From Malassezia furfur (lineage: Eukaryota), in assembly GCA_052055015.1 (NCBI GenBank), contig JBQJIT010000009.1: 64,000 nt of DNA; one strand, given 5' to 3'. The position numbers and the translations under genes are program-made. Below, piece after piece: positions 94 to 63,745 of this stretch. Numbering within the stretch: the first letter of the stretch is position 1; every line of letters begins with the position of its first letter. The notes beneath the pieces were generated by a model. That model ran no database searches, had not been told where the DNA came from, and worked only from the letters and a program-made list of their open reading frames with translations.

Positions 94-3000
94 CTATGTC
101 TCGGAAAGAATCGACTGGTCGCCTGCGTAAGTCACCCCTGCACGTACGTTTCTCCTTGCCCAGGATGATGTCGCCGAGATGGCGCACGTGGTCCTTGAGC
201 CCGTCCTTGGCCCACTTGGCGGTGCGCACGGGCGTGTAACCCATGGCGCCGCGGTGGCGCATATGCAGCTGCTCGGTCTGTGCACGGTTGATGGCGCGGC
301 GCTCCTGGCGCGTGATGACGCCGTCGTCGTTCGCGTGCGAGTTCTCCTCGGCGCGCATCGGCAGGCCGACGAGACGCTCGTACACCTCGAACTCGTGGCG
401 GTCGCGCGCGCCCGTGGCGATCGGGCGGAACGCCTCCGAGAGGCCTGGGCGCACACACAGGCGCATGCTGATCGTGCCGACCTCGTCAAAGTCGTGCGTT
501 TCCTTGGCCTGGGCGTCGATGTAGTTGCGCTCGAGCTGCTTGGTGTTGGCGGCGTGCAGCACGGGGAGCACCACATCGGTCATCTGGTCGTCTTCGAGCT
601 CGCGGAGCGGCAGAATGGCGATGGCGTTTGGCTTGTTCAGGCCCGGGAGCGGCGAGCGCCCAAACTCGAACACGAGCAGCGTCGAGTAGCGGTCGTACAC
701 CGGCACCGAGATGAGCGGCTCGTGCTCGTTCGACTCGGGGTGCTTGCGCAGGGCGCGCATCTTGAACTCGTGCAGACCCGCAACGATGGTGAGCTTGAGG
801 TTGTTCAGCTTCGTGTTCCACTCCTGGGAGCTGCTCTCCACCTCGATGTTGCTCAGGATGTCGACGTGGACCGTGTTGAAGCCGCGCAACTCGCGGGGGA
901 TCGAGAGGCGCACCGCCTTGAAGAGCAGGCTGAGCGCCACCTTGCCGTACCCCACACCGTCCTGCAAGCTGAACATTTGCTCGACCTGCGACGCCTTCCG
1001 GAAAAGGTCGCGCAGCGGCAGCGCCACAATGCCCATGATCGGGTCGTGCTCGCGCAGACGCGCGTCGCGCACCACGATGCGCAGCTCCGCCTTGGTCCAG
1101 TCGCGCACGAACAGCTCAGTACCCGCGTTGAAGAAGGGCATGTTGCTGTACTGCTTGACGCGCGTCTTGAACTGCAGGTGGTCGTTGAGGATCACCTCGG
1201 CGTAGCTCGAAGGCAGCTGGTCGGTGCCTGCGTCGATGTCCTGGCCCGAGGCGCCCTCGCGGTCCGAGCCCTTGACGCCCTTCTCCACCTCGCGGTTCTC
1301 GAGGCCGTCAATGTGGCGCACAATCACGCTCAGCACACCGCACGGCCACTGCGGGTCCGGCGGGATGTACAGCGTGCCGGCCTCCTCCTGGGAGTCAATC
1401 GGTGACGGCTGGCGCTCGCTCTCCTTCTCGGCCTGCGACTCGTTCTTGGTGTCCTTCTTCTGCTCAAGCTTGCGGTTGAGTTTGGCCTTCTCAAAGAAGC
1501 CGACCGACCAGCGCAGCTGGCCCTGCATCTGGTCCGCGTCCTCAAAGCCCATCAGGTCCGACGTCTTCTCCATGATCTCGTTCGGCTTGCGGATCAGGTC
1601 GGTGAGCGGCATGTTGACGCGGCCCACAATGTCGTCTGCCGTGTGCCGGTCCGAGTCCCAGAGTTGCAGCGAGAGGCTCTCTCCGGAGCGCAGGTCGTCG
1701 CGCGTCACGAGCAGGAACGCCGTCTCCTCCCAGACCGGGTTCAGGTCCTCAAAGATGATGCGCGTGGCGTACAGCGGACGGCCAAACTTGGCAAAGCTCA
1801 GCACCGTGTATGGGTCCGACTTGCCGTTCACGTCCTGCGACGAGAGGTTGTAGCCGTACTTGATGTTGACCATCAGCACGCCGAGCGCGTCCGTGTCCTT
1901 CTTGATACCGTCGCCCGCAAGGATCTCGGTCATGTTCATCGTCATGCTCTTCGGCGCGACGTACATGTTGCACGCCGCCGCAATCGACGACTGCACGAAG
2001 TTGCTGATCAGCGGCAGGTCGAGCACGTTGGGCAGGAAGCGCGCCATGGGGATCGCACTGATCGCCACACTCGGCACGCCCATCAGCGAAAAGGTGACGT
2101 TGCGCAGGAAGGGCGCCTCCGAGGTGATCTGCGCACGCAGACGCACCGTACCGATGATGTGGTCCACCTGCACCCACACGGGCACCGGAATCTCGATCCA
2201 GTCAAACGCGCCCAGGAAAAACTCCACGAGAAGGTGTACGTTCTTGGAGCGGTCCTTGGTCGTCTCGCCCGACATGGCCGAGTAGCAGAAGCTCACCTCC
2301 ATGTTCAAAAAGTCGCCCGCATCGTCCTGCTCCTTGGCCTCCTTGAGCTCGCCCGCCGCGTCGCCCTCGTCGCCCTGGGCCGCCTCGGCGCCGTCCTTCT
2401 CGGTGCCATCGTGCTGGCCCGGGCTGTGCTCGATCCACGTCCGCCGCGGGTACTCCGGGTCGGTCATCACTTCCGCCAGCGCACGCATCGCAATCATCCG
2501 CAGCGGGTTCTCACCGAGGCCAAAGTCGGAGATCTTCACCGCCTCAACAAAGCCGGGCAGCGAGCTCTGCATGATGTCCTCGACCATGTCGAGCATCGAC
2601 ACGAACATTTCGGGGTTCAGCTGCTTCCACAGGCACGCAATCGCCGCATTGAGCCATTCGACACTCTCCGGCATCGGCGGGCAAAACTTCTCACCACGCT
2701 GCTTGTGCATCGCGGCGCGCATCGCCTCCATTGACTTGTTCACGTTGCTGTACGCCAGACCCAGCGCGCCATACACAAACAGCGCCGCAACCACCAACAC
2801 ACCGGTGCGCGCGAAGAACGCCATCCACCCGTGTCCGAACGCAGACATGGCCCACACCACCACGATCAGGGCGGCCACCCAGAGCGCCGCATTGTTGAAC
2901 GACATCTTGAGCTGCTCCAGAATCTCCAGGTTGGGCGGCTCAGGGAACGGCTGCAGCAGCACCGACGAAGGCTCCACCGGCTCGGGACTCGTGTAGCGCG

Positions 3001-3784
3001 GGTCCTGCACCGCGTCCTCCCGGAGCCGCTGCGTCGAGTAGCCATTGCCAAAGCGCGAGTCGAGACGCTTGGTGTCGATTGACGTGTTCTTCTTGCCGTC
3101 GCGGATCACGACATCGCCGCCCGTAATCGGGTCGTCCACCTCGCGCTCGCCTTTGGCCACAAATTGGTTCGTCGTCTTTTGCTTGCTCTTCTTGGCCGCC
3201 TCCTTGATGCGGTTCTTCTCCTCCTCACCACCGCCCTTGTCCGTGACCACTTCGCGTTTCTGCCTCTCCTTGGGCGGCTCCTGCGACGCTCCCCCTTGGC
3301 CCTCGGAGCTGCGCTGGGACGCTCCACCCTGGCTGGCCGAGCTGTGCTGCGGCGCGCTCGCCGACGCATCGCGACCGTATGCATCGCTGCCGTACGTGCC
3401 AGCCATGCCCGTGCTCTCGTACGGCGACGATGCCGACGAGTTCCGCCAGTCGGGGTTGCGCCCGGCCTCGAGGTCGCGGCCGGCGAGCGGCGCACCACCT
3501 GACACCGGCGCATGGCCCATCGACGAGTGTGCATCCGCATATTCCTCTTGCTCGTGCGTCGTCGGCTGCGCGTACTTCGGGACGACCGCCGCGCCCGAGT
3601 TGCCTACCTCGCTGGGAACGCCAGGGTCTCGCTCGTTGTTCGACGACGTCCACCGCTCCCACATGTTCGACCATGACGATGGCTCCTCCGTCTCACCACG
3701 TCGCTCCCGCATCTCCCGCTCATACTGCTGTACTGTCGGAATCGGATTTCGCTCAGACCATCCCTCACCTGCGTAGTGAGCCAT
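94..3784 (-). CDS. C2-domain/SMP-domain membrane-contact protein (Mug190/tricalbin-like)
   Basis: Long frame from ATG 3784 (MAHYAGEGWSERNPIPTVQQY). Contains a hydrophobic segment, PESVEWLNA (SMP-like), DVNGKSDPY and WDSDRHTADD (C2 motifs). A 25-nt intron at 123-147 joins to ..KRDQSILSET-stop (94-96). It is missing from the ORF track, probably because the unspliced frame runs off the window edge. Confidence 0.8.
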
Positions 3785-4134
3785 GGTGGGCAGACACCGG
3801 GCCTAGGCGCCGAGTCGGGCGCCCTAATGCGCGGGGCCCGGCGCCAAGGGCCAACTCCCAGGGCACATCGTGCAGGTATGACGTCATTGCGTTGGTCCGT
3901 GCCTAGGCCCACGCGGCTCGGCTTGCGATCCGCACGTGGCATCGTCCGTGTCCCAGTGGAGAAGGCGCGTGGCCCTCCAATGCCCCGATGTAGCAGGCAG
4001 TGCTGCTCAGCGCCCGATTCGCGCCATGGGATTGGTGCGGAAGCGCCCCAAATGGTGCCTGAACTCCGCAACGCGCCGGGCAGTGCGCTAGAGGAGGCGA
4101 GGGCGCGCCCCTTCTTTGCGCTTATGGGAACGTT

Positions 4135-5616
4135 ATGGGGCCAATGCACGAACGATCCAGCAGCGTACCAGCCTCGCTTCTCGTTGCCCTCGATCCAGTG
4201 CTGGGCGACATGGATCACAGCACAGCTACAAGCACCGGTACCACCGCCGCGGTGCCTGCGACGCTGTTAGATGCCCAAGCCTCCAGCAGCAATGCATTTC
4301 CACGCCCCTCAATCCCTCCTCGTCCATACACCCCTGTCCATTCCTCCTCTGCACGCTCAGTGACGGATCAACCATATGCGTACGTGGTGCACTCTCCACC
4401 TGCATCACCATCTGCATCGTCCTCGCACCCTGAAGGAGCGCCCAGGTCTGGACCCTATCTGTCCCTGCCCTCGGCACAGAAAGACACATCCCTACTATCT
4501 CCTTCTGCGCATTGGGTCTCGGAGAGCGATCTCACCACACTCTTCGCGCCGTCCTCGCCTAGTGCCTCATCAGTTTCGGACATGGACGAAAAGGCAAGCT
4601 TTTTTGTCGGCGTATCCAAGGACGACGACGACGGCATCTACATCGACCGCCCACCAGAACTCGACAAACTCAACGAGGAACAACAGGCTATCGCAGCCGA
4701 GTACGCGCCCGATCTGGATAGCGAGCAAAAATCGCTTGTGCGCACCCTCCTTTCAACGGCGCTGGATTGGCGTAAATACGTTCGATGGCAGTATTGGCGT
4801 ACGTCACCTACTAACCCAGATTTGTACCTGATAACGGTGACGATCGTGGCCCTGATCATTGTGATCACCGTCTTCCACCATACCCTTGTGCAGGACTTGA
4901 AACCTGCCTCGGAAAAGGTGCGACACCTGGCATGGGGGTGGATCATCCCCGTGCTCCTCCTCTTTGTCCTCTCCTTCCCACCCCTCTTTGGCGGTGAGAT
5001 TATCGCGGTGCTGTGCGGTCTCGTATACGGAGTCTGGATTGGATTCGGCATTGTGGCTTTGGGCACGTTGCTAGGGGAAATCGCCAACTTCCTCTTGTTC
5101 CGCCACATGCTCCAAGCGGCCGCTTCCAAGATGGAGCGGAAGAACTTGACGTATGCGTGCCTTGCCGAGATCATTCGTACGGGCGGGTTTGTGGTCGCAC
5201 TCCTGGCCCGTTTCTCGGCCATACCAGGACATTTGACCACCGCCGTCTTTTCGACGGTGGGTATGCGATTTTGGGTCTTCTTTTTGTCCGCGCTGCTGTC
5301 ACTCCCCAAGCATCTCAGCGTGGTATATTTGGGCGTTGCGCTTGACACCGACAACGAAGAGAAGCACAGCGGCGGCTCCAAAGGTGTGCAAATCGGTGTA
5401 ATTATTGGCGTAGCGGCCATCACCATCGCAATTGCTCTGTACCTTTGGCGCAAGATGGACCAGGTCAACCCCCACGTGCAGCGCAGCATGCAGCTTGAGC
5501 GCTTCCAACGCCTTCATGCAGCCGCGTCCGCCTCGGAGAAACTCAACACCCCCTCTACTACGTCTGTAAATATGATCGATGAGAAGGAAACAGGACCGGT
5601 GCCTGTTTCCCTGTAA
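4135..5616 (+). CDS. Tvp38/DedA (SNARE-associated Golgi) membrane protein
   Basis: SFPPLFGGEI, GTLLGEIANF and ARFSAIPGH motifs with several TM segments. Predicted in-frame 21-nt intron at 4799-4819 (GTACGT..TACTAACCCAG). Start could be 4135 or 4210. Confidence 0.8.
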   Translation: MGPMHERSSSVPASLLVALDPVLGDMDHSTATSTGTTAAVPATLLDAQASSSNAFPRPSIPPRPYTPVHSSSARSVTDQPYAYVVHSPPASPSASSSHPEGAPRSGPYLSLPSAQKDTSLLSPSAHWVSESDLTTLFAPSSPSASSVSDMDEKASFFVGVSKDDDDGIYIDRPPELDKLNEEQQAIAAEYAPDLDSEQKSLVRTLLSTALDWRKYVRWQYWRTSPTNPDLYLITVTIVALIIVITVFHHTLVQDLKPASEKVRHLAWGWIIPVLLLFVLSFPPLFGGEIIAVLCGLVYGVWIGFGIVALGTLLGEIANFLLFRHMLQAAASKMERKNLTYACLAEIIRTGGFVVALLARFSAIPGHLTTAVFSTVGMRFWVFFLSALLSLPKHLSVVYLGVALDTDNEEKHSGGSKGVQIGVIIGVAAITIAIALYLWRKMDQVNPHVQRSMQLERFQRLHAAASASEKLNTPSTTSVNMIDEKETGPVPVSL

Positions 5617-5638
5617 ATAGCTGTATTCTGTACGGGGA

Positions 5639-7467
5639 CTACGAAGAGTTGCGAGCACCGCGCGCATCCAGCTCGACTTCGTCTGCTTCCGTCGGGAGAG
5701 CGGCAAAGTCGTGCGAGGCGCCGGGCAGATAGCGCCTCAGCGCTAGAGGAACCTCTTTTTGCGACACATAATACAGGGGGATGCCGGCGGCAATGAATGA
5801 AAAGGCTGCAAGCGCTTCCCAAGGGGCTGCGACAACCGGCATCGCGAGGAGGAATAGGGCCATGGCGATAAACACCACAGGGGTGATGAGCCACGTCTTG
5901 TAAGGCCGGTCCAGTTTTGGCTCCTTGATGCGCAGGTATAGCAAGCTTGAAACCGTTGTGCCGTACCAGAACCAGGCACAGACGCCACAGAAATTGACCA
6001 GGCTCGCAAAGCTCGAGCCAAACACCACAAACACGAGGATAAGCGCCGTCGATAGCACTGTCGCGTGAAGGGGACCGCCGAACCGGGGGCTAATTTGACC
6101 CACTGAGCGTGGTAGGAAGGAGTCTTGTCCTGCCGCCATGGTAAGCCGCGAATACGTGTAGAGGTGCCCATTGAGCGCCCCCAGGCACGAAAATGCAACC
6201 ATACCCGCAAACAATAAGCCTCCTGCGGGGCCCAGCGCAACCGTGCCAAAATCAAGTGCGACCGAGTTGGTGCTGGCAACGGTCATGGGCGGAAGAACGA
6301 CAAAGTAGGACACAACGACCGACACAAACGCCGCTGTGACAATGAGGGTACTAGCGTGAATTGCCCGTGGCACATCGCGTCGCGGGTTTTTCATTTCGCC
6401 GGCAACGAATGAGGCCTGGTCCCAGCCATCAAACGCCCACAGCCCACTGTACAGTGCCAATGCATACTGGCTCAGCAAAATTGAGGAGCCCCGGAAGAAG
6501 GATGCCATTGACGAAAAAGCAACTCGCGAAGGAGCAGGCATGTGACCCTGTGCAGCAAACACGATGGCCACCACCGGAATTGTTCCTAAAAGAAGGAGCT
6601 TGATGGCAGTCACTGTATTCTGCAGGCGGATTCCCAGGCGGGGGCTGTAAGCTTGCACCAAGAATACGGTAAGCACCACCAGCGCCGCAATCAACTTGAC
6701 GGCAAAGCGAGGCAGCTCTCCCACGTTGAACTTGCGGAAATCCTCCGAGGAGCCATCATCAAAGAGATGCAAAAGCACGCGCGTGATGTATTCGCCCAAG
6801 ATGGTTGCAATAATCGCGCCGCTGCTCGGCTTCATTGCGATAATTGCCGTCCATGAAAATAGGAATGAGACAAGATGTCCATACGAGTACTGTATTAGAT
6901 TGTATCATACCTGCAAGTAGGCTTGTGCGCCGCCATTCAAGGGAATAGTGGTCGCAAGTTCCGCAAACGAGCTAAATCAGTGGTTGGCTTACCTTGCCCC
7001 GGTCAGGGTCAGCGCTCCACTAATGATCCAGACGACTAGGCTTGCTCCAACTGACCCAGTGTCTGCTGTAACAACTCCAGGCGAGGAGAAAATCCCGCTG
7101 CCCTGCGTGAGTCGACGCGACGTACGACCTGTAAGCCAATGGTCAAAGACATCACTGTGTGAGCAAAAAAGGACACACCATCAATAAGACCAATCCGTGG
7201 TCTCCTGCCTGTTGCATTTTGCGAATGAGAGTGATCAAAGCTCTCGTCAATGTCCCGCGAGGGATGTAGCTGGAAAAGGGCTTCGTCCACAGAAGGGTCA
7301 CCGCTGGGGTCCTCAATGGTCACACTGTTTTTTGCGTGGGCAAGGTGTGGAAGGTGGTGATCGGTTTCTACATCGCGGAATGGTTTTGTAGCGACCTCTC
7401 CAGATCGTCTCCCAGCGGCGGCGACGCCTTCCATGGCCATCGCTTCGTCCAGTGCTCCGTGTTGCAT
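5639..7467 (-). CDS. APC-family L-type amino acid permease (Mup1/LAT-like)
   Basis: After removing introns 7155-7178, 7103-7125, 6972-6992 and 6890-6910 it reads IGLQVGSGIFSSPG..SFAELAT.IPLNGGAQAYL, then LYSGLWAFDGWDQ and GEMKNPRRDVP, typical of the LAT family. Confidence 0.88.
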
Positions 7468-7514
7468 GATACGAACGTCGCACCGACCGCGCCCCACCTC
7501 CACATTTCACTTAA

Positions 7515-8396
7515 ATGTGCGCGGTCCGCGAGTCGTGTTGGTCTGCTGTACGTGCCGCGCACTGACCCAGGGTGCTTCCGAGCTGCTTGAGACGGCTCCG
7601 CTCGCATTCTTCCCACAGGAAACGTGTGTTGCGGTAGGCGCGAGTGCTTATGCAGAAATGCATTGTTTTTGACGAGGCTATTCGGATACTCCTGATCGAT
7701 ATGGATCAATGTCTATGCTTCTATGTCGCGCATTCAAAGGTTTCCATTCGACGATGCATGGATGAAGAAGAAGATGCAGAGATTGAGTCCAAATCTATTT
7801 TTGAACAGCTTCGCTCCGCGATCTACAGGAAGGAAGAATCGGCCTCGGTCAATGTAGCGAAGACCGAGCTACATATTGTAGGTGCTGGATTGACCAAGGC
7901 GACTCTCGACGTGGTTTTTCGCTCCGCTAAGGCAAGAGCGTTACACATGACCATTACTCTGGATGGTATTTTAGGGAATGCCTACCTGTTTGCGAAAGCA
8001 TTTCAGCATTGGACCCATGCGCTGATCCGCATGTCGCTCGGACAGGTACGTCTCACGCCAACCAAGCTCCATTTGCCATTCGAAACAAACCTACCTACGC
8101 TCCTTGCTAGCCCCTTACTGCAGGCGGAGGTGAATGGAGCGATGCCTAGTTCGGACACTTTTCCTCCGGAGGATGCAGATTCGGACGAATCAGGTCCATT
8201 GCTTTTGTCGAGCCAACGGTCGTCGATTGTGTCTACCCCTGCCCACGCGGTGGCCGAAACCACCCCAAATCATCTTTCTCCTTCTAAACGCGGTCAAGAG
8301 GAGCAGGAGCGTCTTGAAGCCATTGAGCTGATCAAGACGGGCCAACAGACTACCCCTCAACGCACGACTCGCAGGAGCAAGGCCGCTCGATTTTAA
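7515..8396 (+). CDS. Hypothetical protein, candidate divergent XLF/Nej1-like NHEJ factor
   Basis: Introns 7548-7570 (23 nt) and 7634-7655 (22 nt) join ATG 7515 in frame to the 7644-8396 ORF. The XLF resemblance was judged by eye only. Confidence 0.55.
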
Positions 8397-8487
8397 CACG
8401 TGGGTTGGGTACCTACTAGGCTAGGCGTGTTCTCGGACCCTTTTTCCAAAAAACCATTCTCGCTCCCGCATAAGCTTCGCGCCCGCA

Positions 8488-10303
8488 ATGGCGGACAGTG
8501 CGGTGTTCGCCGCCCAAAATGCACATGAGACTGGGTGTTGCGGCATGAGTTCTCGCTCAGGCACGTCGTCGTTCCAGACCGTGGAATACGGCGAGCGGCG
8601 GATATCCATTGCTGAGGCGCTGGGATTGGGGATCAAATTGCGTGCCGCCTGTGAACAGTGTCGATTGCGCAAACTGCGGTGCTCTGGAGTTTCGAATGAC
8701 GGTCGTGCCTGCTCCCGATGCTCTCAGGACGGTGCAGATTGCTACTTTGGTACGTGATTTTCTGACCTCAGCGACGCAGTCGCAAATTGGCCGACCGCGG
8801 AAATGTGGGGACGATCGCACCCGAATGCGCTCCGCATCGATGAGCAGTGAAGTGGACAGCCCGCGCAAGATGCGCTGTGGGCCCAGTACGCAACGCTGTG
8901 CCGAGATAATAACGCCGCCTGCATTTCCTTCCCTGCCGGCAGAGGACCTCAAGCCCGCCTCACCAGCCTCCGGCTTCACGCCGTCAGTGCCGCCACTGCG
9001 TCCGCAGGACCTCAGTGCAGGTCCGTCGTCGCTGTCAGATCTGTCACTGGCGGTGTTTCTGGAGTCTCTGTATACTCTGGAGATTGCACCATCCGATGGA
9101 TTGACGCCTAGTATGCTCAACATCGGCCAGACTGAATGGAGCGCTGCTTCGGAGATGACCCCGTCGTCCAGCTCCGCCCAGGGTTCCTGCCAGTCCAGTG
9201 AGTATGCGGACAGCGCATTCTTGAACGACAATCTGGTCTACTCCGTGCCGTCGGACTTGCGTTGGTGGAACCTGGCTTGGGCGCTGCCATCGCAGCAGGG
9301 GGGGCACAGTGCATCATCATTGACAACGACGCAAGACACCCATTCCCGTTTTGTCCCAACTCCTGAACGCGTCGCCCCACCTGTGGCGAGCACAAACTCC
9401 GCGTCGCCTGCCGTTCCGCTGGAAGCGGCGCCTTCGTCATCGTCTTGTTGTACGTCCAAGATCAAGGAGGAGCGCACCCCACCACCAGCTGTGGACGACG
9501 ACCTGCACGAAAAAGTGCATTGTGTCCCCAACCCCACGGGTCCGGGATGCTCGTGTCTCTGTGAGTCGGATGTGGCCCTTCTTTCGTTGCAGCGGTCCCT
9601 GCGCAGTGGTCCCCTAGCGATGGACGAAAAGCAGACCAGTACGGATTCGAAGGTCGACGTGGCCTCGTCGCTTGTCTTCACCCTGTCCATGAGCCAGGCC
9701 ATTACGAAAAAGTGTGCGTGCAGTGCCGACTGTCCAACGTGCAAAAAGGACCCGTCGTACGAAATTAGCGCAGGTCTCCTGATTTCCACGGCGCTGCAAA
9801 TTTATGCGCGAGCGCTCAAAGTGTTCCAAGAGGTGTTGGTTTCAGAAGGCAGTACCTCGTGTGGATGCACGTCGTCCGGCTCCTGCAAGCAGTGCCCGTG
9901 CTCGTCCAATCCGCGAAATGGATCGCGTAGTCTCGCCAAAGAGGACGCCGGCGTTGAGGTGCGGATCGGCGACTTTGTGCCAACTTCGCAGAATGCACGC
10001 AAAATTGCGCTGTACGCGATGAAGCTCGAACTGCTCGACCTGGAACGTGCCCTGGCGCACGTTCAACAGGTCGCACAGCAGTCGCTTCCGGCACCACCCG
10101 ACGCTGTGGGCGAGGCACCGCCGCAGGCTCCCAGCGGTTCTTGCTGCGCGAAGAAGTCGGCTGATCTGAAAATCCCCAAGCGCAACACACCCCTCCGACT
10201 CAACCCCATCGACCAGCTGATCATCCGTAAACTCCATGTACAGCTCAGCGAGGTGCTCCAGACGGTCGAGAACCTGGAAGCCAACGAAACTAGATATGTA
10301 TAA
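8488..10303 (+). CDS. Zn(II)2Cys6 transcription factor with Cys-rich C-terminal clusters
   Basis: ACEQCRLRKLRCSG..ACSRCSQDGADCYF binuclear cluster. A 22-nt intron at 8750-8771 joins it to ATQSQIGRPRK and the long 8609-10303 ORF. Confidence 0.88.
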
Positions 10304-10306: not shown

Positions 10307-11814
10307 CTACCCAAACCTTGCCAGGCGGAGCCGCCGCATCTCTTCCGCGGATACGGCGGGTGGTTCCGACTCGGTTTCCTCCTCCTCGTCTTCATCTGAG
10401 GGGTCACTAGAGCGCGGGGGCGTGCTGGTTTCTTTCGCCGGAGGGGCCGGCTCGGGGGGCTTTTGCGCTGCCTCGCGCAGGCGCCGAATACGCTCGACGT
10501 CGGCCGGTAAGGGAGCCGGTGCCGAGGGTGCACGATGCAGCTCGCGCTCAGTATGCGAGCGTAGCCGATCCGACACCTCGTAGGGCTGCCCCAGACTTGC
10601 AGCAATCACTGCCTGGAGCTGCTCATCGTCGTCGTCGAGGTGAACCGGCGCTGGTGCCTCAGACTCCGAGTCACTGCTGTCGATTTCTTGTACGTCGTCG
10701 TCAAACAGGCTCGTGCTCGCCGCTGCGGCAAGAAACGGCGACCGACGCACACTTGGTAGCTCGTCACTGTCGAGGATGTCGGACGAAGACTGCCTCCGTG
10801 AGTTGCGGCGGCTTCGGTTCGGCCGGATGCCAGGGGTATCGGTGGGGTCGTGGTCCGCCGCGCGCTGCTGCCAGCGCCGCTGACTACGATGGCCACTGGT
10901 TGGCAGTGGCTCAAGCACAGGCGACGCAGGCTCATTGCGCGAGCGATGCCGACGTGGCGCGATAGCATCGACATGCAAATCATTCTCTTCGCTGCCAGAG
11001 CTCAGCTCCCGGGCCCGCCGGCGGCGCGGGGTCTGGGTCAGTGGTAGGCAACGTACAAGGCTGTGAGTCTCGCTGTCATGGCGCTGCGCAAACTCTTCGC
11101 GACTCAATCGGAGAGCCTCTTGCAGCTCGGGGTCCTCGTCGTCGGACACGGCAATGGGGGCATCGGCGGTGCCAGGCGCACCATCAAGGCCTGTCTCAGC
11201 CATGTCATCGGCGATACTGTCAAGTGGATCTGCACCTGGTTCCTGCTCCACGACAAACACCGAATATCCCTCCTGCTCAGCCTGCGTCAGCATTGGCACG
11301 TACGGTGTGTAGAAATGTGCCCAGATACGCTTCGCCAAGCCACTGTGGCTTCGCAAAGAAGCTGTTCAAATTAAACCATTGACGCTGCGCACGCCCAAAC
11401 CCACGGATCGCCACCCAGTGGCTACCAAGGTTGAGCACAAAGGCGAATTCGCGCTCCGGGTGGTCATAGCGCTCCGGCATGCCCTGTTTGCGCCAGCGAA
11501 CCAAATTCAGGCTCCACGTCTTAAACGCACGGTCCAGCACCTCGACACTAAAAAACCCTGTGTCGTCCATATGGTGAGCGGTTCCGTTCGTGTCGGCATC
11601 CGCTGGTACAATGCCCAGTTCGCCGCGCTCGTACGAGGCGATTTCTTCAGCAACCTGGCCGAGCTGGCTTGCGTCAAAGAACTGCCCCTGTAGAATTCCG
11701 TTCAGGGCATGCTGCGCACACATCATACTGCCCGGCTCTTGGCGTTCTGATATGAGCAGCGCACGTACCATGATACACGTACGGCAATAGCCGCTCGCCT
11801 CGCTTCGCGGCCAT
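10307..11814 (-). CDS. Ataxin-3-like Josephin deubiquitinase with UIMs
   Basis: YHERQEPGSMMCAQHALN (catalytic Cys), HWVAIR and WFNLNS. UIM-like DPELQEALRLSREE and DEQLQAVIAASL. C-terminal EEMRRLRLARFG. Introns 11747-11768, 11282-11303, 11033-11056. Confidence 0.92.
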
Positions 11815-11900: not shown

Positions 11901-13347
<1,447 letters not shown>

Positions 13348-13380: not shown

Positions 13381-14112
13381 ATGGCCGAGTTGGATGCTGT
13401 GCCGCTTGTTGCGCCCAACGCGCCGGTCGTCGTGGCCGGCGGCACAGTGCTGGGCACACTCGCAGGTGGTATCGTGGGTATCACCACCGGCATCCTCACC
13501 AATCGGCCCGTGCCGCCGCCCGTGCTCGGCGTGCGGTTCGCCAAGGGATGGCTGGCCTTCTCGTTTGGCTTCTTTGGTACGTGCCTGACTCACCCAGCCA
13601 TCCGCGAGTACGCGGTGCGCCCCCTGCTGAACCGCAACATGCCCCAGCGCGAGGGGCCGCATATGCACAACCTACGTGCCACGTTCCTCGCCGGGGGTAC
13701 GATGGGCGCAGTCGCGGCGGCCTTTCTGCGCCGGCCGGTGGTGTCGGGCATTCTGACCATTGCGGGCCTGTGCACGGGCGTACAGCTGATCAGCAATGAG
13801 GTTATGTTCGCTGCCAACGTGGTATCCACCTACGGGCGAACCGAGCCACCGCAGGCTATCCCGGCGCCAGTGCCCACGAATGAGGTCCCCGCGGCGGCCG
13901 AGGCGCCCAGCGCTTCGCCCGAGCCAGTCTCGCGCAACGCGGTGTTGCGCTTCCTGGAGCGGCATGATATTGTCGTACCACTGTCGGACGACCAATACAA
14001 GGAACGGCTGTTGCAGCGCCGCAGCGAAATTGACCGCGAGCTCATCCTCCTCGACCAGGAGCTCGCACAGGAGCGGCGGCAACTCGAACTTTTGCAGAGC
14101 ACCGGTCGCTGA
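13381..14112 (+). CDS. Hypothetical multi-pass membrane protein (Gly-rich TMs, Tim17-like layout) with C-terminal coiled coil
   Basis: ATG 13381 in ccaccATGG context. Gly-rich hydrophobic helices. Predicted in-frame 21-nt intron at 13577-13597. Confidence 0.6.
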   Translation: MAELDAVPLVAPNAPVVVAGGTVLGTLAGGIVGITTGILTNRPVPPPVLGVRFAKGWLAFSFGFFGTCLTHPAIREYAVRPLLNRNMPQREGPHMHNLRATFLAGGTMGAVAAAFLRRPVVSGILTIAGLCTGVQLISNEVMFAANVVSTYGRTEPPQAIPAPVPTNEVPAAAEAPSASPEPVSRNAVLRFLERHDIVVPLSDDQYKERLLQRRSEIDRELILLDQELAQERRQLELLQSTGR

Positions 14113-53398: not shown

Positions 53399-56300
53399 CT
53401 ACGGACCGAGCGAGCCCATCGGCCCGTACGTGTCGAAGTTGGGCACCGTCGGCGGGGCATTTTGCTGGTTGGTCGCGTTGGTATAGTAGGTGCTGTTGGG
53501 CATCGGCATCACGTTGGGCGGACGCACCGCGCCGCCCGGCCCCACGCCCGAGCGGTCGCCCGTGTTGCTCGCCTGGTACTTGGGGCACGCATTGTTTGTC
53601 GCCATGTGGCCGACCATGCCGCAGCGGCCGCAGCGGCGCTTGGTGTTGGTCTTGTTGGGCATGTTCTTGTAGCCGCCAATGAGGCCCTCGGCGGCGGCCT
53701 TGGCGTTCTTGCGCTGCAGACGGCGGCCCTGGTTCTTGACGAGGGCCGCAATGTCGTCCTCGAGGCGCTTCTTGCGCAGCGCATCGAGCGCCGCATCGCC
53801 GGTCGGCACGAGCGACTCGGTCATGATGCTTTGCTCCTCGATCTCCTTGCGCTGCTTGACGTACGCATTGACCACCGCGGGGTTGCGCACAATGTGCTTG
53901 TACCACACGCCGTTGATCAGGCGCTTCACAAGCAGCGGCTTGGACGACTTTTGCTCGGCGAGCTTGTGCCGCCGCTCCTCTTCGCGCCACTCGTGCTCCT
54001 CGCGCGCGGTGATCTCCGGCGGGACGGGGTTCGACAGCGCGGCGAGCTGCGCCTTCCAGATGCGCGCAATCTCCGAGCGGTAGATGGCCTGCTGTTCCGC
54101 GACGTTGTACCGGTGGCCCGACTTGGCGCGCGCCTCGGCCTCGGCCGCCAGACGCTCGTCGACGTCTTCGCCGGCGCGCAGGAAAATCTCTTTCATGGAC
54201 ACGCGCACAAAGCTGAAGGCCTCGCCGCGCCCACTGGGGTCGCCGTCGCCGTGCAGCTTGAGCATGGCCTTGCCCTGCGTCGCGTGCAAAAAGTTTTTGC
54301 TTGTGATCCACGGCGCAAGGAGCTGCTCAATGTCCATCTTGGTCTCGTCGCTGTCGTCGTCGTGGCCCTCGGCGGTCTTGGTGAAGCCCGCGTCGAGCAG
54401 GTGGCGCTGGCCCACCTGCATGCCCTCGACGAGACAGATGTGCTCCGGCGTGAGCAGCTTTTGCAGCTCGGCCTCGTCCGGAATCGGCACGTTGGGCTTG
54501 AGCCGCCAAAAGCCCTGGTGCTTGTCGCCCGACTTGCGGTGGAACACCATGAATTCCTGGGTGAGTCAACACGACGTACGTTCAAACGCTGGCGCATCTG
54601 CAGCTCGTTGTGGTCGGGGAAATACTTCATCACGCGGTGGATCTTGATGCGGTGCGCAGCGCTCTTCTCCAGCAGCTTGTACGTGATCATCCGCAGGCGG
54701 TGCTTGACGTTGTTCGTCACCAGGCGCGCGTGCGGACCGGGGATCGGTGTCGTGGGGTACGTCTGGCCCACGGTAAACAGGTAGGGAATGTCGCGGATGT
54801 AGTAGCGCACGTCGTTCTTGGTCGTGCTCCGGATGAACAAGAAGTCGTTCGACTGGGGCTTGTGCCGGAAAAGCGGCGCGCGCGTCATGTTGTTGTACAG
54901 CACCGGCTGCGTCTGCCCCGGCTCGACGCTGCCAAACTTCATAAAGGGCGACTCGTCGGTGATGTCCAGGACGAACGCCTCGCCGAGCTCCGCGCGGGGG
55001 ATGTGGTCGTCCTTGCTGTCCTTCTTGCGGTAGTAGTTGACCAGCAGCGAACCCATGCCCAGGTTCGACAGAAGCGGAGGGTACTCTTCCGAGTACTCAC
55101 ACAGCACAAAGTTGCTCGCGTCCTTGAGCGTGAGGTCGCGCGTGCTGTGCAGCACCTCGCTCGGATCCTTGGACTTGCGCTCGCCGTCCTTTTTGCGCGC
55201 CGAATGCACCTTGGAGAAGTGGATCGGCATGTTGGACGGGAACTGGATCATGGGCCGGTGCCACGAGCGCGTCTCGTTCTTGGCGAGGCGCATCTTGTAG
55301 AACGGCAGCTGCAGCTTGATCGCTGGCCACGCGTGGCGCACCACGAGCTGCCCAAGCGTCTGCCGTACGCGGTGGCGGTGCTCCTTGCTCAGCTCGTACA
55401 TCCGGTCGTTCGACAGGTTGAACGGGTCAAGCTCACCCGTGTACTTGCTCGACTTGAACAGGTTTGGCGGCGCATCCGCACGCAGCAGCGACACCTGCTT
55501 CTCCTCTTGGACCTGCTCGTTCTCCAGGATCATCTCGGCATCATTCATGTCCATGATCAGCCGGTCAAACGGACGGAACCGCGACACGGGGTTCCAAATG
55601 ATGCTCTCGAAAAAGTACTGCCCGTTGGCCAGCTCCACGTTGCGGGGGCGGCTCACGTCCTCCAGCCGGGGGATGTGCTCGTCGACGAGCGGCGGCGCGG
55701 CATGCGCGCGTTGCGGATTGTAGGGCACAATGCGCCGCTCCCAGTCGTCCACCTCGACGTTGTTCACCACACGCCCGGGGCGCTCGTGCGCGCGGTCTGT
55801 GTGGTCGTCATCAAACTGCACCGCACACCGCTCTAGCGTCTCGCGCGCACGACCCGTCTCAAAGCACGAACGCGCGAGCCGCGCAGCAAGCGGCGGCGCA
55901 GCGGGCGCCGCAGGTGCCGCGTGACGGCTCACGAGCTGGTCGTGCCCACTCGGCGGCGCTGCAGTCAGCACGCCCGGCGCCGCGTGCACCTCGGGCAGCT
56001 TGCCGAGCAGCCGCCGCCGCTTCTGCGAGGGCGTCACAAACAGCTCAGTGTAGTCCAGCACCTTGCCCGGCGCAAAGTCGGGGAACAGGCGCCGCGCCTC
56101 TTCGCGCGGCGACAGCACGGGCGACTTGGGGCGCGGAATGGCCTCCGTGGCCTCGGGCGCAGGCGTGGGCGCCGCGGCAGCGGCCGGGGGTGCCGGCGCT
56201 ACCTCCTCCTCCTCCTCGTCCGCAAAGTCGTCGTCCTCGCCGCGGATCTTGTGCGCCATGTGCCGCAGCGGGCGCGCACTCGGCGCCGCAGGGCGTGCGG

Positions 56301-56574: not shown

Positions 56575-57631
56575 TATATACGGAACAGGCGCGCCGCGTT
56601 GCGGAGCGCGTGCTCGGCGAGCTCGGCGAGGCGCACGTTGTGCACGCGCGCGACCACGGCGGCCACCTCGCCGATGCAGCACGGCTCGTTGCGGCCTTTT
56701 ACAGCACTCGTAGCATTCCAGCGCTCAGGCTTGGCGCGCGGCGGCGAGTACAGCGCGGCAAGCTGCGGCTCCTCGCGCCGGAACTGCTCCAAGAGCGGCG
56801 CCGAGGCATGCGTCGTACGCAGGTCGCACCACGGTGCGTCTGGGATGAGCACGTCACGTACCAGTCTCAAGCATGATGCGGTGTAGCGGGATCTGTCGCA
56901 CCACCTCGAGGTTTTCGGCGGTCTTGAGCGAGCAGCCATTCACGCCGACAAACAGGCCGAGCGACAGCAGTTCGCGCAGCTCGTCGGCCGTGCCGGTGTA
57001 GCTGTGCACCACGCCGACGCACCCGGGCTCATCAGCGTTTGGCTCGCTTGTAGTCCCAGCGTTGCGGCGCAACGCCGCCAGGTGGGGGCGCAGCACCTGC
57101 ACAAAGTCGGCATGCGCCGCGCGCGAATGCAGAAAGAGCGGCAGGCGCGTCGTCTCAGCGAGCGCCAACTGCGCGTCAAACGCGGCTTTTTGGGCATCTG
57201 CCGGGGCAAAATGCAGCCGATCGTAGTCTGTGTAAGGCCGCACACGTACCCAGTCCACACTCGCCGATCGCCACGATCCGTCCGTCGTTCGTCCCGAGAC
57301 GGTGTGCGTCAACGAGCGCCTGCAGCGCTGCCATGTACGCGGATGAGCCGCCCTCGTGCGATGTCACTTCGGTGCTCCGCGTAGGATGGCATCCTGCCGT
57401 AGCGTACAGGTTCGGCCGCAGCTGCGTGAGGCGCAGCACCTCGTTCGTCTCGGCAAGCGAGCCGGCCGTGATGATCTGTGCCCGCACGCCGGCACGCTCG
57501 GCACGGTCCAGCACATGAGCAAGGTCATCAGGATGCTTTTCCTTGTCGTGGTATACGCCGCGGAACATGGGGTCGCCCAAGTTCACGGCGATCTCGACAT
57601 ACGCCGGCACGGGCGCCGGCGCTTCGGCCAT
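56574..57631 (-). CDS. TatD-family DNase
   Basis: GCHPT, AIGECGLDYDRLHF, LFLHSR, VVHSYTG, LETDAPW and KGRNEPC. Introns 57228-57249 and 56840-56861. Confidence 0.93.
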
Positions 57632-57682
57632 CTTGGTCCAAGCGAACGCTGCCTCCACCTACTGCCCCGCATCTCCCCCACC

Positions 57683-61385: not shown

Positions 61386-62915
61386 TCATCGCCACTGGTG
61401 CTGCTTCGCGCCAATGGCAACCGCAAGGTCCTCGAGCTCACGTCCCCATGCATGAGCTACCCCGGCCTGCCGGCGGCTCACCTGCTCCGCACGCGGCGCA
61501 AGCTCGAGCGTCCCCTCCACCTGGTCAATCCGACCGCGAATGCGCCCGTCGAGGATAAGCATCAGCACGAGCGACGTCACCCGTTCCTCTGCGAGCTGCA
61601 GCATGTCGGCCAATGCCGAGAGCCGGATGGAGCCATAGGGCCGCACAGCACCGATTAGGTATTGGATCCTCAGCTCCGTGAGCACGTCTGCAATGAACTC
61701 GCGGATAAAGTCGTCGTCGGTGAGCGTTGCATGGTTGTCTGGGTGAGCATGGCACGTACCGCGCACAATGCGCTCGGCACCCTGTACATCACGCCGCTGG
61801 TAGGCGTCGACAAGCGAGGTCATCGCGACAATGTTGGGGTCGTCGCGGTATGGCTTAGTCTCCTGCGAGTCAAATGGGTTGACGTCGCTACCCATAAGCA
61901 TGTGCGCTAGCACAAGATATTTGAGAACTTGGATGCGCAGCTGGCTTCCCGCTTCATCGTAGTTGCGGAACGCCTGGAAAAAGTCGACCTGCGCGGCCTC
62001 CCAGTTTTCTGCGTGAGCGTGCGACGTACTTTCGGCCATATGCATCTTACCGCCGCTCTCGCGAATCATGCCCATGGTGCGGGGGTGCGGAATCGCATTC
62101 TTGATTCGCATCGCTGCATCGTAGGTGTCCTGCATCAGTGTGTTGACCCACCTTGACTTTCTTCAGGTTGCCCATCTCGCGGTACATTTGGATCTCGAGC
62201 GCGAGCAGCTCCAGCATGAGCGTGCCCTTGGACTGTCCGTCGCCAGCATCGGCCGCGAACTCGTTTGCGCGCAGCTCACGCAGCGTCTCGGTAAGCCGCG
62301 CCCACTCTTTGCGCGACAGCCACAGCCGCGCAAGTTTCAGCTTAATCTTCATGTTGAGCCGGTCGCTCTGCGACGCGGCCAGCACCTCGTCTGTCGCTTG
62401 GTAGAATGCCTCGAGGATCGCGAGGGACGCATTCGACGCTGAGACGTAGTCGAGGATCGAGTTGACCGATTTTTCGCTGCATCAGTTTCCCACGTACGTG
62501 TAGTTTCGCGTTACGGCTGACTTGGTATACTTGAGCAGTGCGCGATAGGTCCGCAGCGCCTCTTCGTGCTGTCCCCGATGGAAATGGATCTTGGTCTGCT
62601 GCTTGAGCGCCTTGAATCCCCTGTGTGAGCGCATCCACATACCACTCGGTCATATCTGTCTCGGCATCCAAGATGTCCTGAAGCTCGCGGATCGCCGCGT
62701 CGGGCTGCTCAGCCTTGATGGCTGCGTCAGTGCGATGCATAGGTACCCTTCGCGTTGTAGTATTTGTTCTCGATATATGCGTCCGCATCTTGCTCATCGT
62801 CGTCGTCCTCATACTCGAAGTCATAGTCCTGCATAAGTCGGTTGCGCGCACCTCTTCGAGCGCATCGTCCATCATAAACTGCGTCAGTGGCGCGGCCTAC
62901 CTCCTCGTCCGACAT
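61386..62915 (-). CDS. CSN2: COP9 signalosome subunit 2
   Basis: MSDEEFMMDD..IENKYYNAK..EWGFKALKQ..VTRNYTEKSVNSILDY..IPHPR..NPFDSQETKPY. Eight introns: 62879-62900, 62829-62851, 62722-62746, 62621-62642, 62477-62497, 62130-62151, 62009-62029, 61739-61759. Confidence 0.95.
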
Positions 62916-63028
62916 CCTGGCGGCGCACGGTCGTTGCGGAGCTCGCCGATCGATCGGGGAAATATACACGTGCTGGACTCCCGGCCGTCGCGCAGCCGAA
63001 CCCCGTTTCCGATCGTCGATCGCTCGCC

Positions 63029-63745
63029 ATGGTCCTGGTACGTAGGCAGCTGCATTGTGCCTTCTTACACGCAGGAAAAGCTGTCCATCTACCCCCAGCC
63101 CGATCAACCGGTGACCGTCGTCGAGACCTCGAACGAGCTCGAGCGCCAGGTCGGTGGCATCCGCGAAGCCGTCCAGCGAGGCACGCGCGGGGCCTTGCAG
63201 TCGGTGCGCTCGGGCGTCGACCGCGTGGTGAACACGGAGCACAAGGTCGAGAGTAGGTTCACGAGGCACTAACGCAGACCGCTTTGACCAGCTCGTCGCC
63301 AAAGACGAGTCGCTCACGCCCAACGGCCTGTACGTCGGCGTTGCGACGCTCGCCAGCGTTGTGTTCACGCGGTACCGTACGTGTTGCTACTCACCCAGGC
63401 TCGTTCCCGATTCGCTGGTTCACGCCGCCGCTTGTGCTTGCGCTGTCCTTCAAGTACTTCCTGCCGCACACCTTTGACAACACGGCGGAATACTACGATG
63501 CGGTGGAGCACAAGAACTTCCCGCAGTTCAGCGAGAAGCGCCAGAATGTTTGGTCGACGATCAAGCGCACCTACTTCACTGGTGTGTCGCACCTTGAGCG
63601 CACGGGCGAGCAGGCCAAGGATGCCCTCGCGTCGGGCGTTCACAGCATGGAAAACAGCACCGGCCTCAAGCTCGGCTCGGTGCTGCCGACGGGCACGGTG
63701 CCGGAGTCGGCGCCGAAACTGGCCGACAAGACCAAGCTCGTGTAA
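63029..63745 (+). CDS. MICOS subunit Mic26/Mic27 (ApoO-like)
   Basis: EKLSIYP..LTPNGLYVGVATLASVVFTRYRSFPIRWFTPP..YFLPHT. Introns 63038-63074, 63253-63277, 63377-63398. Confidence 0.8.

Follow-up and report, generated by a model that had tools for sequence, protein, structure and literature searches.

What are the many short GT-AG segments that interrupt reading frames throughout this 64-kb stretch of Malassezia furfur DNA (the window, analyzed here over its whole length), and how short do they become? Judged from the sequence, they are very probably ordinary U2-type spliceosomal GT-AG introns of a furfur-group Malassezia, reduced to a minimal layout of fixed form. The original prediction made from this DNA is thereby partly supported: the layout of the introns, their 21-nt floor, and the mis-annotation expected to follow from them all stand, whereas their novelty was overstated.

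The intron set and its support

Gene models were built without the earlier intron list, using a self-trained codon model and a dynamic program that allowed introns of 15 nt or more, followed by curation by eye. This independent rebuild yielded 71 GT-AG introns in 30 genes between positions 123 and 63398, about 1.1 per kb, a count that is approximate because there are further candidates and alternative boundaries. Lengths range from 21 to 37 nt (mean, 23.0; median, 22), with 19 introns of 21 nt, 22 of 22 nt, 11 of 23 nt, six each of 24 and 25 nt, two each of 26 and 27 nt, and single introns of 29, 32, and 37 nt; 41 are thus 21 or 22 nt long. The predicted total of 71 was reproduced with a tally differing by one intron (18 of 21 nt and three of 27 nt had been counted, against 19 and two here), and all other lengths agree.

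After splicing, a single open reading frame (ORF) runs through every junction in 29 of the 30 genes. Fifty introns are required for frame, 43 because their length is not a multiple of three (3n) and seven because they are in frame and contain stops, with about eight of the frame-based calls adjoining terminal exons of at most eight codons, for which a different start or stop is conceivable. There is no depletion of 3n introns (27 of 71). Twenty introns are in frame and stop-free; ten of these show the motif only and might be retained or spliced alternatively, and ten are backed by homology, part of which comes from annotated sister-species proteins that are themselves predictions. Every one of the ten homologue-tested introns of this class came out as an intron, with none contradicted. 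The spliced models of four genes, covering 21 junctions, align with homologues without gaps (isochorismatase-family [ISOC], seven; CSN2, eight; alpha/beta hydrolase, three; FRG1, three), and Pfam profile coordinates run on across separately scanned exons for NDK, GSHPx, DUF3591, Sec5, ApoO, TatD, 6PF2K, DUF2921, ABC1, and Pkr1.

The individual introns are given below with their strand; lengths are not 3n unless so marked. At the left end, the 25-nt intron of a Mug190-like SMP/C2 gene (123..147, minus) keeps the ORF, with a final exon of just eight codons, and a VTT-domain gene has a 21-nt intron (4799..4819, plus; 3n, stop-free, motif only). The amino-acid permease, on the minus strand, has four: 24 nt at 7155..7178 (3n, stop-free, called from the motif and a long ORF upstream), 23 nt at 7103..7125 (required for frame), 21 nt at 6972..6992 (3n, two in-frame stops), and 21 nt at 6890..6910 (3n), the last having been predicted and indeed containing an in-frame stop. 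On the plus strand, an unnamed gene (7510-8400) has introns of 23 nt (7548..7570) and 22 nt (7634..7655), both required for frame, and of 21 nt (8046..8066; 3n, stop-free, motif only, with a GTACGT donor and a nonconsensus branch), and a Zn2Cys6-like gene has one of 22 nt that is required for frame (8750..8771). The minus-strand Josephin gene contains introns of 22 nt (11747..11768 and 11282..11303) and 24 nt (11033..11056; 3n, stop-free, motif only), and the RuvB-like 2 (TIP49) gene one of 22 nt (11990..12011, minus). A possible 27-nt intron directly after the ATG of the latter gene (13288..13314, minus) was kept outside the 71; an internal ATG offers an equally good unspliced start. Further introns lie in a membrane-protein gene at 13381-14112 (21 nt, 13577..13597, plus; 3n, stop-free, motif only), in the Pkr1 gene (21 nt, 17195..17215, plus; 3n, stop-free), where only the read-through has about seven residues in excess of the Pkr1 profile, and in the minus-strand Sec5 gene, at 21011..21032 (22 nt) and 20873..20893 (21 nt; 3n, stop-free), the latter spanned by Sec5 profile segments 619-656 and 659-837. 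The PSMD12/Rpn5 gene (25 nt, 24428..24452, minus) and an adenosine-kinase-like (PfkB) gene with a final exon of five codons (32 nt, 25672..25703, plus) have one each.

In the middle of the window, the Sgf11 gene has two 3n, stop-free, motif-only introns on the plus strand, of 24 nt (32693..32716) and, after a 14-nt exon, 21 nt (32731..32751). The ABC1 kinase gene has introns of 25 nt (34425..34449, minus), across whose exons the ABC1 profile is continuous, and 23 nt (33763..33785, minus). Both NDK introns are 23 nt long (plus): 35913..35935 follows a first exon of five codons, and 36240..36262 is supported by direct reading and by NDK profile segments 5-103 and 105-133. The seven introns of the isochorismatase-family gene (plus), all backed by gap-free alignment, are three of 22 nt (36528..36549, 36566..36587, and 37120..37141), two of 21 nt that are 3n with a stop (36593..36613 and 37038..37058), and two of 21 nt that are 3n and stop-free (36721..36741 and 37186..37206). 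A 5-nt micro-exon (36588..36592, plus) is flanked by introns of 22 and 21 nt, and this is the sole reading that matches the homologues without gaps. The minus-strand Prp3_C/DUF1115-domain gene has introns of 22 nt (38442..38463, or 28 nt at 38442-38469, the donor being ambiguous; required for frame), 22 nt (38121..38142), and 23 nt (37907..37929). A small gene at 38860-39168 (plus) has two that are 3n, stop-free, and motif only, of 27 nt (38910..38936, or 36 nt from 38901) and 21 nt (39044..39064). The glutathione peroxidase intron (23 nt, 39557..39579, minus) separates GSHPx profile segments 1-31 and 33-108. A SERF-like gene (plus) has introns of 23 nt (41010..41032, after a two-codon first exon) and 21 nt (41170..41190; 3n with a stop), and splicing of the DUF4504 intron (22 nt, 41749..41770, minus) yields one M-to-stop ORF. 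Two FRG1 introns (plus) are 3n, stop-free, and aligned without gaps (24 nt, 42196..42219; 27 nt, 42320..42346); with the third removed (22 nt, 43147..43168), the C terminus stops where the homologues stop.

Toward the right end, the minus-strand 6PF2K/FBPase gene has introns of 25 nt (44782..44806), 26 nt (44728..44753), and 23 nt (44272..44294), the last parting 6PF2K profile segments 13-152 and 157-222, with four residues ahead of the latter segment. The alpha/beta hydrolase gene (plus) has introns of 29 nt (45465..45493, gap-free alignment), 24 nt (45562..45585; 3n, stop-free, its eight read-through residues missing in homologues), and 24 nt (45757..45780; 3n with stops, aligned). A 20-nt alternative nested within 45465-45493 was rejected by homologue alignment; an 18-nt and a 15-nt candidate likewise failed homology tests. 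Two possible introns, resting on motif and short ORF only, lie outside the 71 in a small ORF at 45972-46174 (24 nt, 46140..46163, minus; 26 or 22 nt, 46015..46040, minus). On the plus strand, an SMC-family gene has introns of 21 nt (46367..46387; 3n, stop-free, motif only), 22 nt (49547..49568), and 26 nt (49649..49674), and a DUF2921/RING gene has two of 22 nt (51332..51353 and 52350..52371) and one of 21 nt (52826..52846; 3n, stop-free), with DUF2921 profile segments 99-187 and, from residue 3, 191-235. A TAF1-like (DUF3591) intron (23 nt, 54557..54579, minus) parts profile segments 1-270 and 272-444, and of the two 22-nt TatD introns (minus; 57228..57249 and 56840..56861) the former marks where the TatD profile stops at 94 and restarts at 101 at residue 6. 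The eight CSN2 introns (minus) are 62879..62900 (22 nt, collinear with M. brasiliensis CSN2); 62829..62851 (23 nt), 62722..62746 (25 nt, donor GTACCT), 62621..62642 (22 nt), 62477..62497 (21 nt; 3n with a stop), and 62130..62151 (22 nt), all five aligned; and 62009..62029 and 61739..61759 (21 nt each; 3n, stop-free), both encoding seven residues that are missing in orthologues. At the same site and phase as 62009-62029, another fungus (locus L072) has a 58-nt GT-AG intron. The ApoO/MICOS gene (plus) has introns of 37 nt (63038..63074, after a three-codon exon), 25 nt (63253..63277, between ApoO profile segments 11-52 and 57-85), and 22 nt (63377..63398, between 57-85 and 88-130). Four junctions named beforehand, 36240-36262 (NDK), 39557-39579 (GPX), 57228-57249 (TatD), and 7103-7125 (permease), were all recovered.

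Splice signals and the 21-nt floor

The strict motif GTACGT-N(4..30)-CTNAY-N(1..5)-AG occurs 43 times on the two strands of the 64-kb window, against a mean of 0.6 (standard deviation, 0.7; maximum, 4) in 100 dinucleotide shuffles and 12 occurrences in 858,223 nt from 80 further eukaryotic loci (0.89 per 64 kb). Each of the 42 distinct sites belongs to a gene model and is in sense orientation. Among the 71 introns, the 5' end reads G71 T71 A61 C54 G70 T60 and the 3' end C58 T59 N A61 C55 N C64 A71 G71. There is no polypyrimidine tract, the composition of the spacer being that of the window, and the spliceosomal-type layout without such a tract holds as predicted.

Counted from the 3' end, the branch A is 5 nt away in about 58 or 59 of the 71 introns. 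It occupies position 16 in 23 introns and is never closer to the 5' end, save in one branch-ambiguous intron. With 16 nt or more from the 5' end to the branch A and 5 nt from there to the 3' end, the floor comes to 21 nt (16 + 5 = 21). In agreement with the prediction, no intron is shorter than this among the 71, with a gene-model search that allowed lengths down to 15 nt, and none of the strict-motif matches falls below 21 nt, although the pattern permits 18 to 20 nt. The distribution is cut off beside its mode (22 introns have 22 nt and 19 have 21 nt, but none has fewer).

The design has three parts: a 5' splice site of six bases (GTACGT or close to it), a spacer that is no shorter than six bases and has no composition bias, and CTNAY as the branch motif, with two more bases before the AG. 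The spliceosome would remove such segments from the RNA, and the floor would correspond to the shortest span between 5' site and branch with which the machinery can work; deletion pressure on a compact genome would make lengths accumulate there. As only four bases separate the branch A and AG, the 3' site is probably chosen by its fixed distance from the branch rather than via a pyrimidine tract. The putative steric limit of the spliceosome, as proposed beforehand, fits both the cut-off distribution and the 16 + 5 geometry. Rfam searches returned no match in the 64-kb window.

Alternative explanations and public gene predictions

Three other explanations have to be weighed. Most introns could be real while many in-frame stop-free ones, at most the ten with the motif only, are retained or only sometimes removed; seven to nine codons would then be translated per retained intron, leaving fewer true introns and a lower 21-nt peak. 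Those ten introns would permit such retention, as would the undepleted 3n class, whose retention would often be harmless. We nevertheless consider it unlikely, since all ten testable introns of this kind proved to be introns, the strict motif is expected by chance only 0.6 times across the whole window, and 9 of the 19 introns of 21 nt are independently forced or homology-backed. We are similarly doubtful that the floor results from sampling a single 64-kb window, with a thin genome-wide tail of 17 to 20 nt and no hard limit. The sample is 71 introns, rarer shorter ones might occur elsewhere in the genome, and splicing of shorter introns is reported for ciliates and a nucleomorph; the abrupt cut-off, however, appeared in searches that permitted 15 to 20 nt, and every sub-21-nt candidate failed homology tests.

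That the segments are not spliceosomal at all (frameshifted pseudogenes, assembly errors, DNA-level elimination, or tRNA-type or Ire1-type splicing) is extremely improbable. All 71 have GT-AG ends, a consensus at the 5' site, and a branch motif of the yUnAy type whose place is fixed, and 43 independent frameshifts carry these signals too. Moreover, the spliced CSN2 and FRG1 models are collinear with proteins of sister species, and one intron site is shared with the 58-nt GT-AG intron of another fungus. Minimal spliceosomal introns remain our preferred reading.

The spliced CSN2 model is identical to M. brasiliensis CSN2 at 439 of 450 residues without gaps, which places the source organism in the Malassezia furfur group. 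The same alignments show directly that several public protein predictions mishandle ultrashort introns, as had been anticipated for gene finders. The M. japonica ISOC prediction misses a 10-residue exon, those for M. yamatoensis CSN2 and M. nana FRG1 retain in-frame inserts at intron sites, and ORF-caller proteins read straight through the introns in the ISOC, CSN2, hydrolase, and FRG1 comparisons.

Relation to known intron systems

The suggestion that these introns might be undescribed was overstated. A Malassezia review mentions "very short introns" (PMC7426719), the curated gene set of M. sympodialis has a mean intron of 30 bp, with 99% of 5350 introns supported by RNA-seq (PMC5389616), the median intron of M. 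restricta is 30 (PMC9241646 and PMC6473144, annotations of M. restricta and M. arunalokei), and Malassezia annotators have worked with intron minima of 10-20 nt. In an older annotation of M. globosa the mean is 76-79 (PMC4634964). These published annotations concern the same genus and the same phenomenon, and as the M. brasiliensis annotation already contains all eight CSN2 splices, the phenomenon was known. The introns here are shorter (mean 23.0, median 22, versus about 30 in M. sympodialis and M. restricta), and the accessible text of the annotation papers states neither a mode nor a floor and describes neither branch geometry nor micro-exons. Supplementary Figure S8 for M. sympodialis, which shows intron lengths, may already contain a mode in the low 20s. 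The exact design, with its floor and geometry, has apparently not been described explicitly before; the accessible Malassezia literature yielded no statement of a 21-nt floor, a fixed geometry, or a 5-nt micro-exon.

In Yarrowia lipolytica, Trichomonas vaginalis, and Giardia lamblia, a strong branch motif is likewise fixed from the AG without a pyrimidine tract, and Y. lipolytica has the same 2-nt gap between branch motif and AG (Irimia and Roy 2008, PMC2483917), in a survey that does not include Malassezia. By the same source, these anchored-branch genomes are intron-poor, in contrast to the roughly 1.1 introns per kb here; Y. lipolytica introns are long (median, 204), whereas here the 5' part is minimal too; and in Ustilago maydis the branch consensus is weak and the median 95 nt. 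The T. vaginalis "type B" introns resemble ours in their low-20s lengths and conserved 5' and branch/3' motifs, and one of 23 nt is described as among the shortest known, but 63 active introns genome-wide compare with 41 of 21-22 nt in this window alone (PMC12316389).

Intron lengths confined to a narrow range in the low 20s are shared with Paramecium (about 25 nt), myxozoans and dicyemids (medians, 22-27 bp; PMC13644364), and microsporidia and a chlorarachniophyte nucleomorph, both counted among ultrashort-intron genomes. The splice signals here are strong and yeast-like, however, whereas myxozoan splice-site motifs are reduced (PMC13644364). Set against the expectation on 3n introns laid out in PMC1950532, this locus shows no 3n depletion. 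In contrast to the other ultrashort-intron genomes, the host here is a culturable yeast, transformable according to the review cited above (PMC7426719).

Intron set and host of the window

Our gene models confirmed the system of very short introns that the original prediction had described: 71 introns were modelled independently of its list, and their motif occurs well beyond chance. The models were made with a dynamic program that linked exons, allowing candidate introns of at least 15 nt, together with a self-trained codon model. Because the codon model is weak in lower-GC DNA, such stretches, including 36-39 kb, were curated by eye. The curated set comprises 71 introns in 30 genes (about two per gene, 71 per 64 kb), with lengths of 21 nt (19 introns), 22 nt (22), 23 nt (11), 24 nt (6), 25 nt (6), 26 nt (2), 27 nt (2), and 29, 32, and 37 nt (one each), giving a mean of 23.0 nt and a median of 22 nt. 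The window alone thus holds 41 introns of 21 to 22 nt. The earlier length tally stood except in two classes, for which it gave 18 introns of 21 nt and 3 of 27 nt versus 19 and 2 here.

The number 71 is approximate, since two or three further candidates lie outside the set: two of 24 and 26 (or 22) nt in a small open reading frame (ORF) at 45972-46174 (minus strand) and one of 27 nt directly after the start codon of the RuvB-like gene. The small ORF, of about 56 codons and unannotated-looking, lies between two plus-strand genes, and its stop is about 10 nt from that of the convergent hydrolase gene.

The motif was counted in a strict form, GTACGT-N(4..30)-CTNAY-N(1..5)-AG, which permits introns of 18 nt. 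It has 43 matches on the two strands, versus a mean of 0.6 (standard deviation, 0.7; maximum, 4) in 100 dinucleotide-preserving shuffles, and a looser form beginning with GTNNGT has 75 matches versus 16.2 in the shuffles. In 858,223 nt from 80 other-eukaryote loci, the strict motif matched 12 times, or 0.89 times per 64 kb. The intron count excludes matches antisense to genes (7008-7031, 51990-52013, 52822-52842, and 62263-62283) and a match within a coding exon (49601-49622).

The G+C content of the window ranges from 53 to 67%, and genes are tightly packed on both strands. The exon translations match ordinary eukaryotic families, including NDK, GSHPx, TatD, TIP49, Sec5, PCI, 6PF2K, SMC_N, FRG1, Pkr1, SURF1, and others. 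For three genes, the nearest named relatives are all from Malassezia (M. japonica, 65%; M. brasiliensis, 95% over one exon; M. psittaci, 74%), and the spliced CSN2 model is identical to the M. brasiliensis protein at 439 of 450 positions, gap-free; these relationships identify the host as Malassezia of the furfur group. A search of the window for Rfam families and tRNAs gave no match. A metagenome search with a Malassezia CSN2 alignment yielded 80 loci, and no Malassezia-like sequence was among them (best identity, 53%, besides a fragment, L072, at 77%). Intergenic spacers are extremely short: the stop of the glutathione peroxidase gene at 39178 (minus strand) is about 10 nt from the end of a small convergent plus-strand gene at 38860-39168, which has two candidate introns. 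The roughly 800 nt at 30478-31296, upstream of an ABC-transporter gene, lack an open frame on the minus strand, an unusual length for so compact a window.

Frame, profile, and alignment evidence for splicing

Splicing places all junctions of a gene in a single open frame for 29 of the 30 genes, the exception being FRG1, in which a stop directly follows the last intron. The length of 44 introns is not divisible by three, and among the 27 for which it is, 7 carry in-frame stops and 20 are stop-free. Setting aside the last FRG1 intron, the reading frame requires 50 of the introns; for about eight, which border a terminal exon of at most 8 codons, the frame argument is weaker.

Exons were also scanned one by one against Pfam, and the profile coordinates were compared over the junctions. 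The profiles resume where they break off in NDK (5-103, then 105-133), GSHPx (1-31, then 33-108), DUF3591 (1-270, then 272-444), Sec5 (619-656, then 659-837), and ApoO (11-52, 57-85, and 88-130), and the same continuity is seen for TatD, 6PF2K, DUF2921, and ABC1. The NDK gene had been put forward as an example, and the 23-nt GT..AG segment at 36240-36262 that breaks its conserved motif can indeed be read directly from the sequence. Unspliced translation of the Pkr1 gene yields 76 residues over 68 profile positions, whereas exon 1 alone matches about one to one, which marks the 21 nt at 17195-17215 as an addition.

Gap-free alignment of spliced models to homologues covers 21 junctions in four genes. 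The isochorismatase-family gene (introns at 36528-37206, plus strand) aligns without gaps over all 7 of its junctions and CSN2 (introns at 61739-62900, minus strand) over all 8. The alpha/beta hydrolase gene is gap-free over 3 junctions, and reading through its 24-nt intron adds eight residues; FRG1 is likewise gap-free over 3, and its spliced C terminus stops where those of its homologues stop. For the 20 stop-free introns with lengths divisible by three, homology backs 10 and contradicts none, the other 10 being putative introns recognised by their motif. The CSN2 intron at 62009-62029 matches, in codon and in phase, a 58-nt GT-AG intron at positions 66-123 of L072, a fungal metagenome contig that is 77% identical over 85 residues, and at least that site is therefore old and shrunken.

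Very short internal exons accompany these introns. In the isochorismatase-family gene, exons of 16 nt (36550-36565) and 5 nt (36588-36592), both on the plus strand and backed by alignment, lie amid introns of 22, 22, and 21 nt, and this is the sole reading of 36550-36592 that is gap-free against the homologues. A putative 14-nt exon in the Sgf11 gene (32717-32730, plus strand) lies between introns of 24 and 21 nt; since both are in frame and stop-free, it is recognised by motif.

Could these segments be something other than spliceosomal introns? Inserts of tRNA type with a bulge-helix-bulge (BHB) structure, Ire1-type introns, and DNA elimination would each come with boundary signals of their own; such signals are absent, and all boundaries show GT-AG together with the branch motif. 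Because the signals match those of the major spliceosome, the segments are very probably its normal introns, and the spliceosomal-intron interpretation is well supported by sequence.

Alternative introns within individual genes were weighed in the same way. A 15-nt candidate at 36927-36941 lies within a stretch kept by all homologues, and an 18-nt candidate at 42259-42276 is unneeded, the homologues retaining residues there. The 20-nt candidate at 7155-7174 is a start-codon artefact, with a 24-nt reading and a long upstream ORF favoured in its place, and a nested 20-nt candidate in the alpha/beta hydrolase gene (45474-45493) adds three residues missing from 10 of 11 homologues. A 24-nt candidate at 13195-13218, inside the RuvB-like N terminus, has a weak 5' splice site and is unneeded; a 62-nt candidate at 13536-13597 was superseded by a 21-nt intron with an upstream ATG. 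Dynamic-program predictions of 58 to 113 nt and of 84 nt were dropped as artefacts.

Intron anatomy and the 21-nt floor

All 71 introns have GT-AG ends. The 5' end conforms to an extended GTRNGT-type consensus (column counts G71 T71 A61 C54 G70 T60), with GTACGT in 43 introns. The CSN2 intron at 62722-62746 (minus strand), which begins with GTACCT, is the only one without G at position +5; it is still demanded by frame and alignment. At the 3' end, the columns read C58 T59 N A61 C55 N C64 A71 G71, with A at -6 in 61 introns and C at -3 in 64. A yUnAy-type branch motif, CTNAY, was found in 69 introns at first scoring; the distance from the branch A to the 3' end in these was 5 nt (58 introns), 6 nt (8), or 7 to 8 nt (3). 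In the intron at 8046-8066, the branch is at the usual position but departs from the consensus. Pyrimidines make up 51% of the spacer versus 50% of the window as a whole, so that a pyrimidine tract is absent, as the original prediction had held.

Measured from the 5' end, no branch A comes closer than position 16, which it occupies in 23 introns; positions 17 and 18 account for 17 and 13 more. With at least 16 nt from the 5' site to the branch and 5 nt from there to the 3' end, the floor is therefore 16 + 5 = 21 nt, and the minimal layout consists of a 5' site of six bases, a spacer of at least six, a branch motif of five, two further bases, and AG. In agreement with the original prediction, no intron is shorter than 21 nt. 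The strict-motif matches are likewise of 21 nt (12 matches), 22 nt (12), 23 nt (7), and longer, with none at the permitted 18 to 20 nt.

A 22-nt GTACGT..AG stretch at 49601-49622 (plus strand) lies in an exon of an SMC-family gene, where the frame demands that it stay unspliced. With its branch-like A 11 nt from either end, the stretch violates both distance rules.

The length distribution is cut off at or beside its mode, as expected of a hard lower limit combined with steady shrinking pressure, and this is what leads us to read 16 nt as a limit. In this scenario, 16 nt would be the shortest span between 5' site and branch that the splicing machinery accepts, and the fixed 5 nt would reflect selection of the 3' site by its distance from the branch. 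Both readings seem to us somewhat more probable than otherwise, and the idea that the spliceosome works near a steric limit is a plausible account of the floor.

Annotation and comparison with known systems

The original prediction also held that gene finders would misannotate such genes, and public proteins bear this out. The M. japonica isochorismatase-family protein lacks a ten-residue exon, the M. yamatoensis CSN2 protein has an eight-residue insert precisely at an intron site, close to which the M. vespertilionis protein has a gap, and M. nana FRG1 retains an insert where the 27-nt intron lies. Where proteins were predicted from raw assemblies, in-frame introns are translated or the frame is lost. 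Faulty predictions at matching intron sites in several Malassezia species include P0001, P0019, P0020, and P0186 and, from an ORF caller, P0002, P0016, P0023, and P0173. The public M. brasiliensis CSN2 protein is collinear with our eight-intron model, so present annotation pipelines do detect such introns. The 16 + 5 rule would serve as a cheap annotation check.

Short introns as such are already known for the genus and annotated in a sister species, and the novelty of our observations is moderate. Excerpts of a review describe very short introns in Malassezia genes (PMC7426719), and the available text on the curated M. sympodialis annotation reports a mean of 30 bp for 5350 introns, of which 99% are supported by transcriptome sequencing (PMC5389616). 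For M. restricta, partial texts give a mean and median of 37.2 and 30 and minimum intron lengths for annotation of 20 and 15 (PMC9241646, PMC6473144); an older M. globosa annotation gave means of 76 to 79 (PMC4634964). In the portions available, a 50-species survey does not include Malassezia (PMC2483917), and M. sympodialis figures in a survey of fungal introns merely as intron-poor (PMC8476143). The genus is likewise unmentioned in the excerpts of the minimal-intron papers of 2025 and 2026 (PMC13644364, PMC12316389), of which one names ciliates, microsporidia, and dicyemids as exceptional in having introns below 30 nt (PMC13644364) and the other terms a 23-nt Trichomonas intron among the shortest known (PMC12316389). 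Searches of the full-text literature, to which subscription papers and the intron-length supplementary figure of PMC5389616 do not belong, so that the mode may already be drawn, found no Malassezia mode of 21 to 22 nt, 21-nt floor, 16 + 5 geometry, or such micro-exons. The simple rule behind the floor thus seems not to have been stated before.

Taken as a whole, a broader proposal is possible, and we hold it tentatively, with some doubt: that these introns represent the most compact design with canonical signals known in a culturable, transformable yeast, with a hard floor of 21 nt (16 nt from 5' site to branch plus a fixed 5 nt to the 3' site) and exons down to 5 nt between two such introns, under a rule that is undescribed and overlooked by the shortest-intron literature. 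If so, the 5' site, branch, and 3' site would be read as one composite unit with no pyrimidine-tract step. The introns of 21 to 22 nt in the window carry strong, yeast-like signals. Should the 16 + 5 geometry hold genome-wide, a skin yeast described in review excerpts as open to genetic work (PMC7426719) would be a handy system. Such a system could address the minimal distance between 5' splice site and branch and the choice of a 3' site 5 nt from the branch.

Depletion of stop-free introns with lengths divisible by three is the defining feature of the ciliate case. Unlike the tiny introns of the Paramecium type, those of the window show no such depletion (27 of 71 have lengths divisible by three, 20 of them stop-free), and their phases are distributed 30/26/15. 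Compared with the published Malassezia introns, with means or medians of about 30 nt in the excerpts available, the introns of this lineage appear shorter (mean, 23.0; median, 22), a comparison of one window, not of a genome. A branch anchored to the AG without a pyrimidine tract has been described, in the accessible part of the survey, at 2 nt in Y. lipolytica and at 4 nt in T. vaginalis and G. lamblia (PMC2483917). As far as that text goes, the fixed distance and the missing tract are shared by the window, whose 2-nt gap is that of Y. lipolytica; the genomes of this type are intron-poor, whereas the window, with 71 introns in 64 kb, is not.
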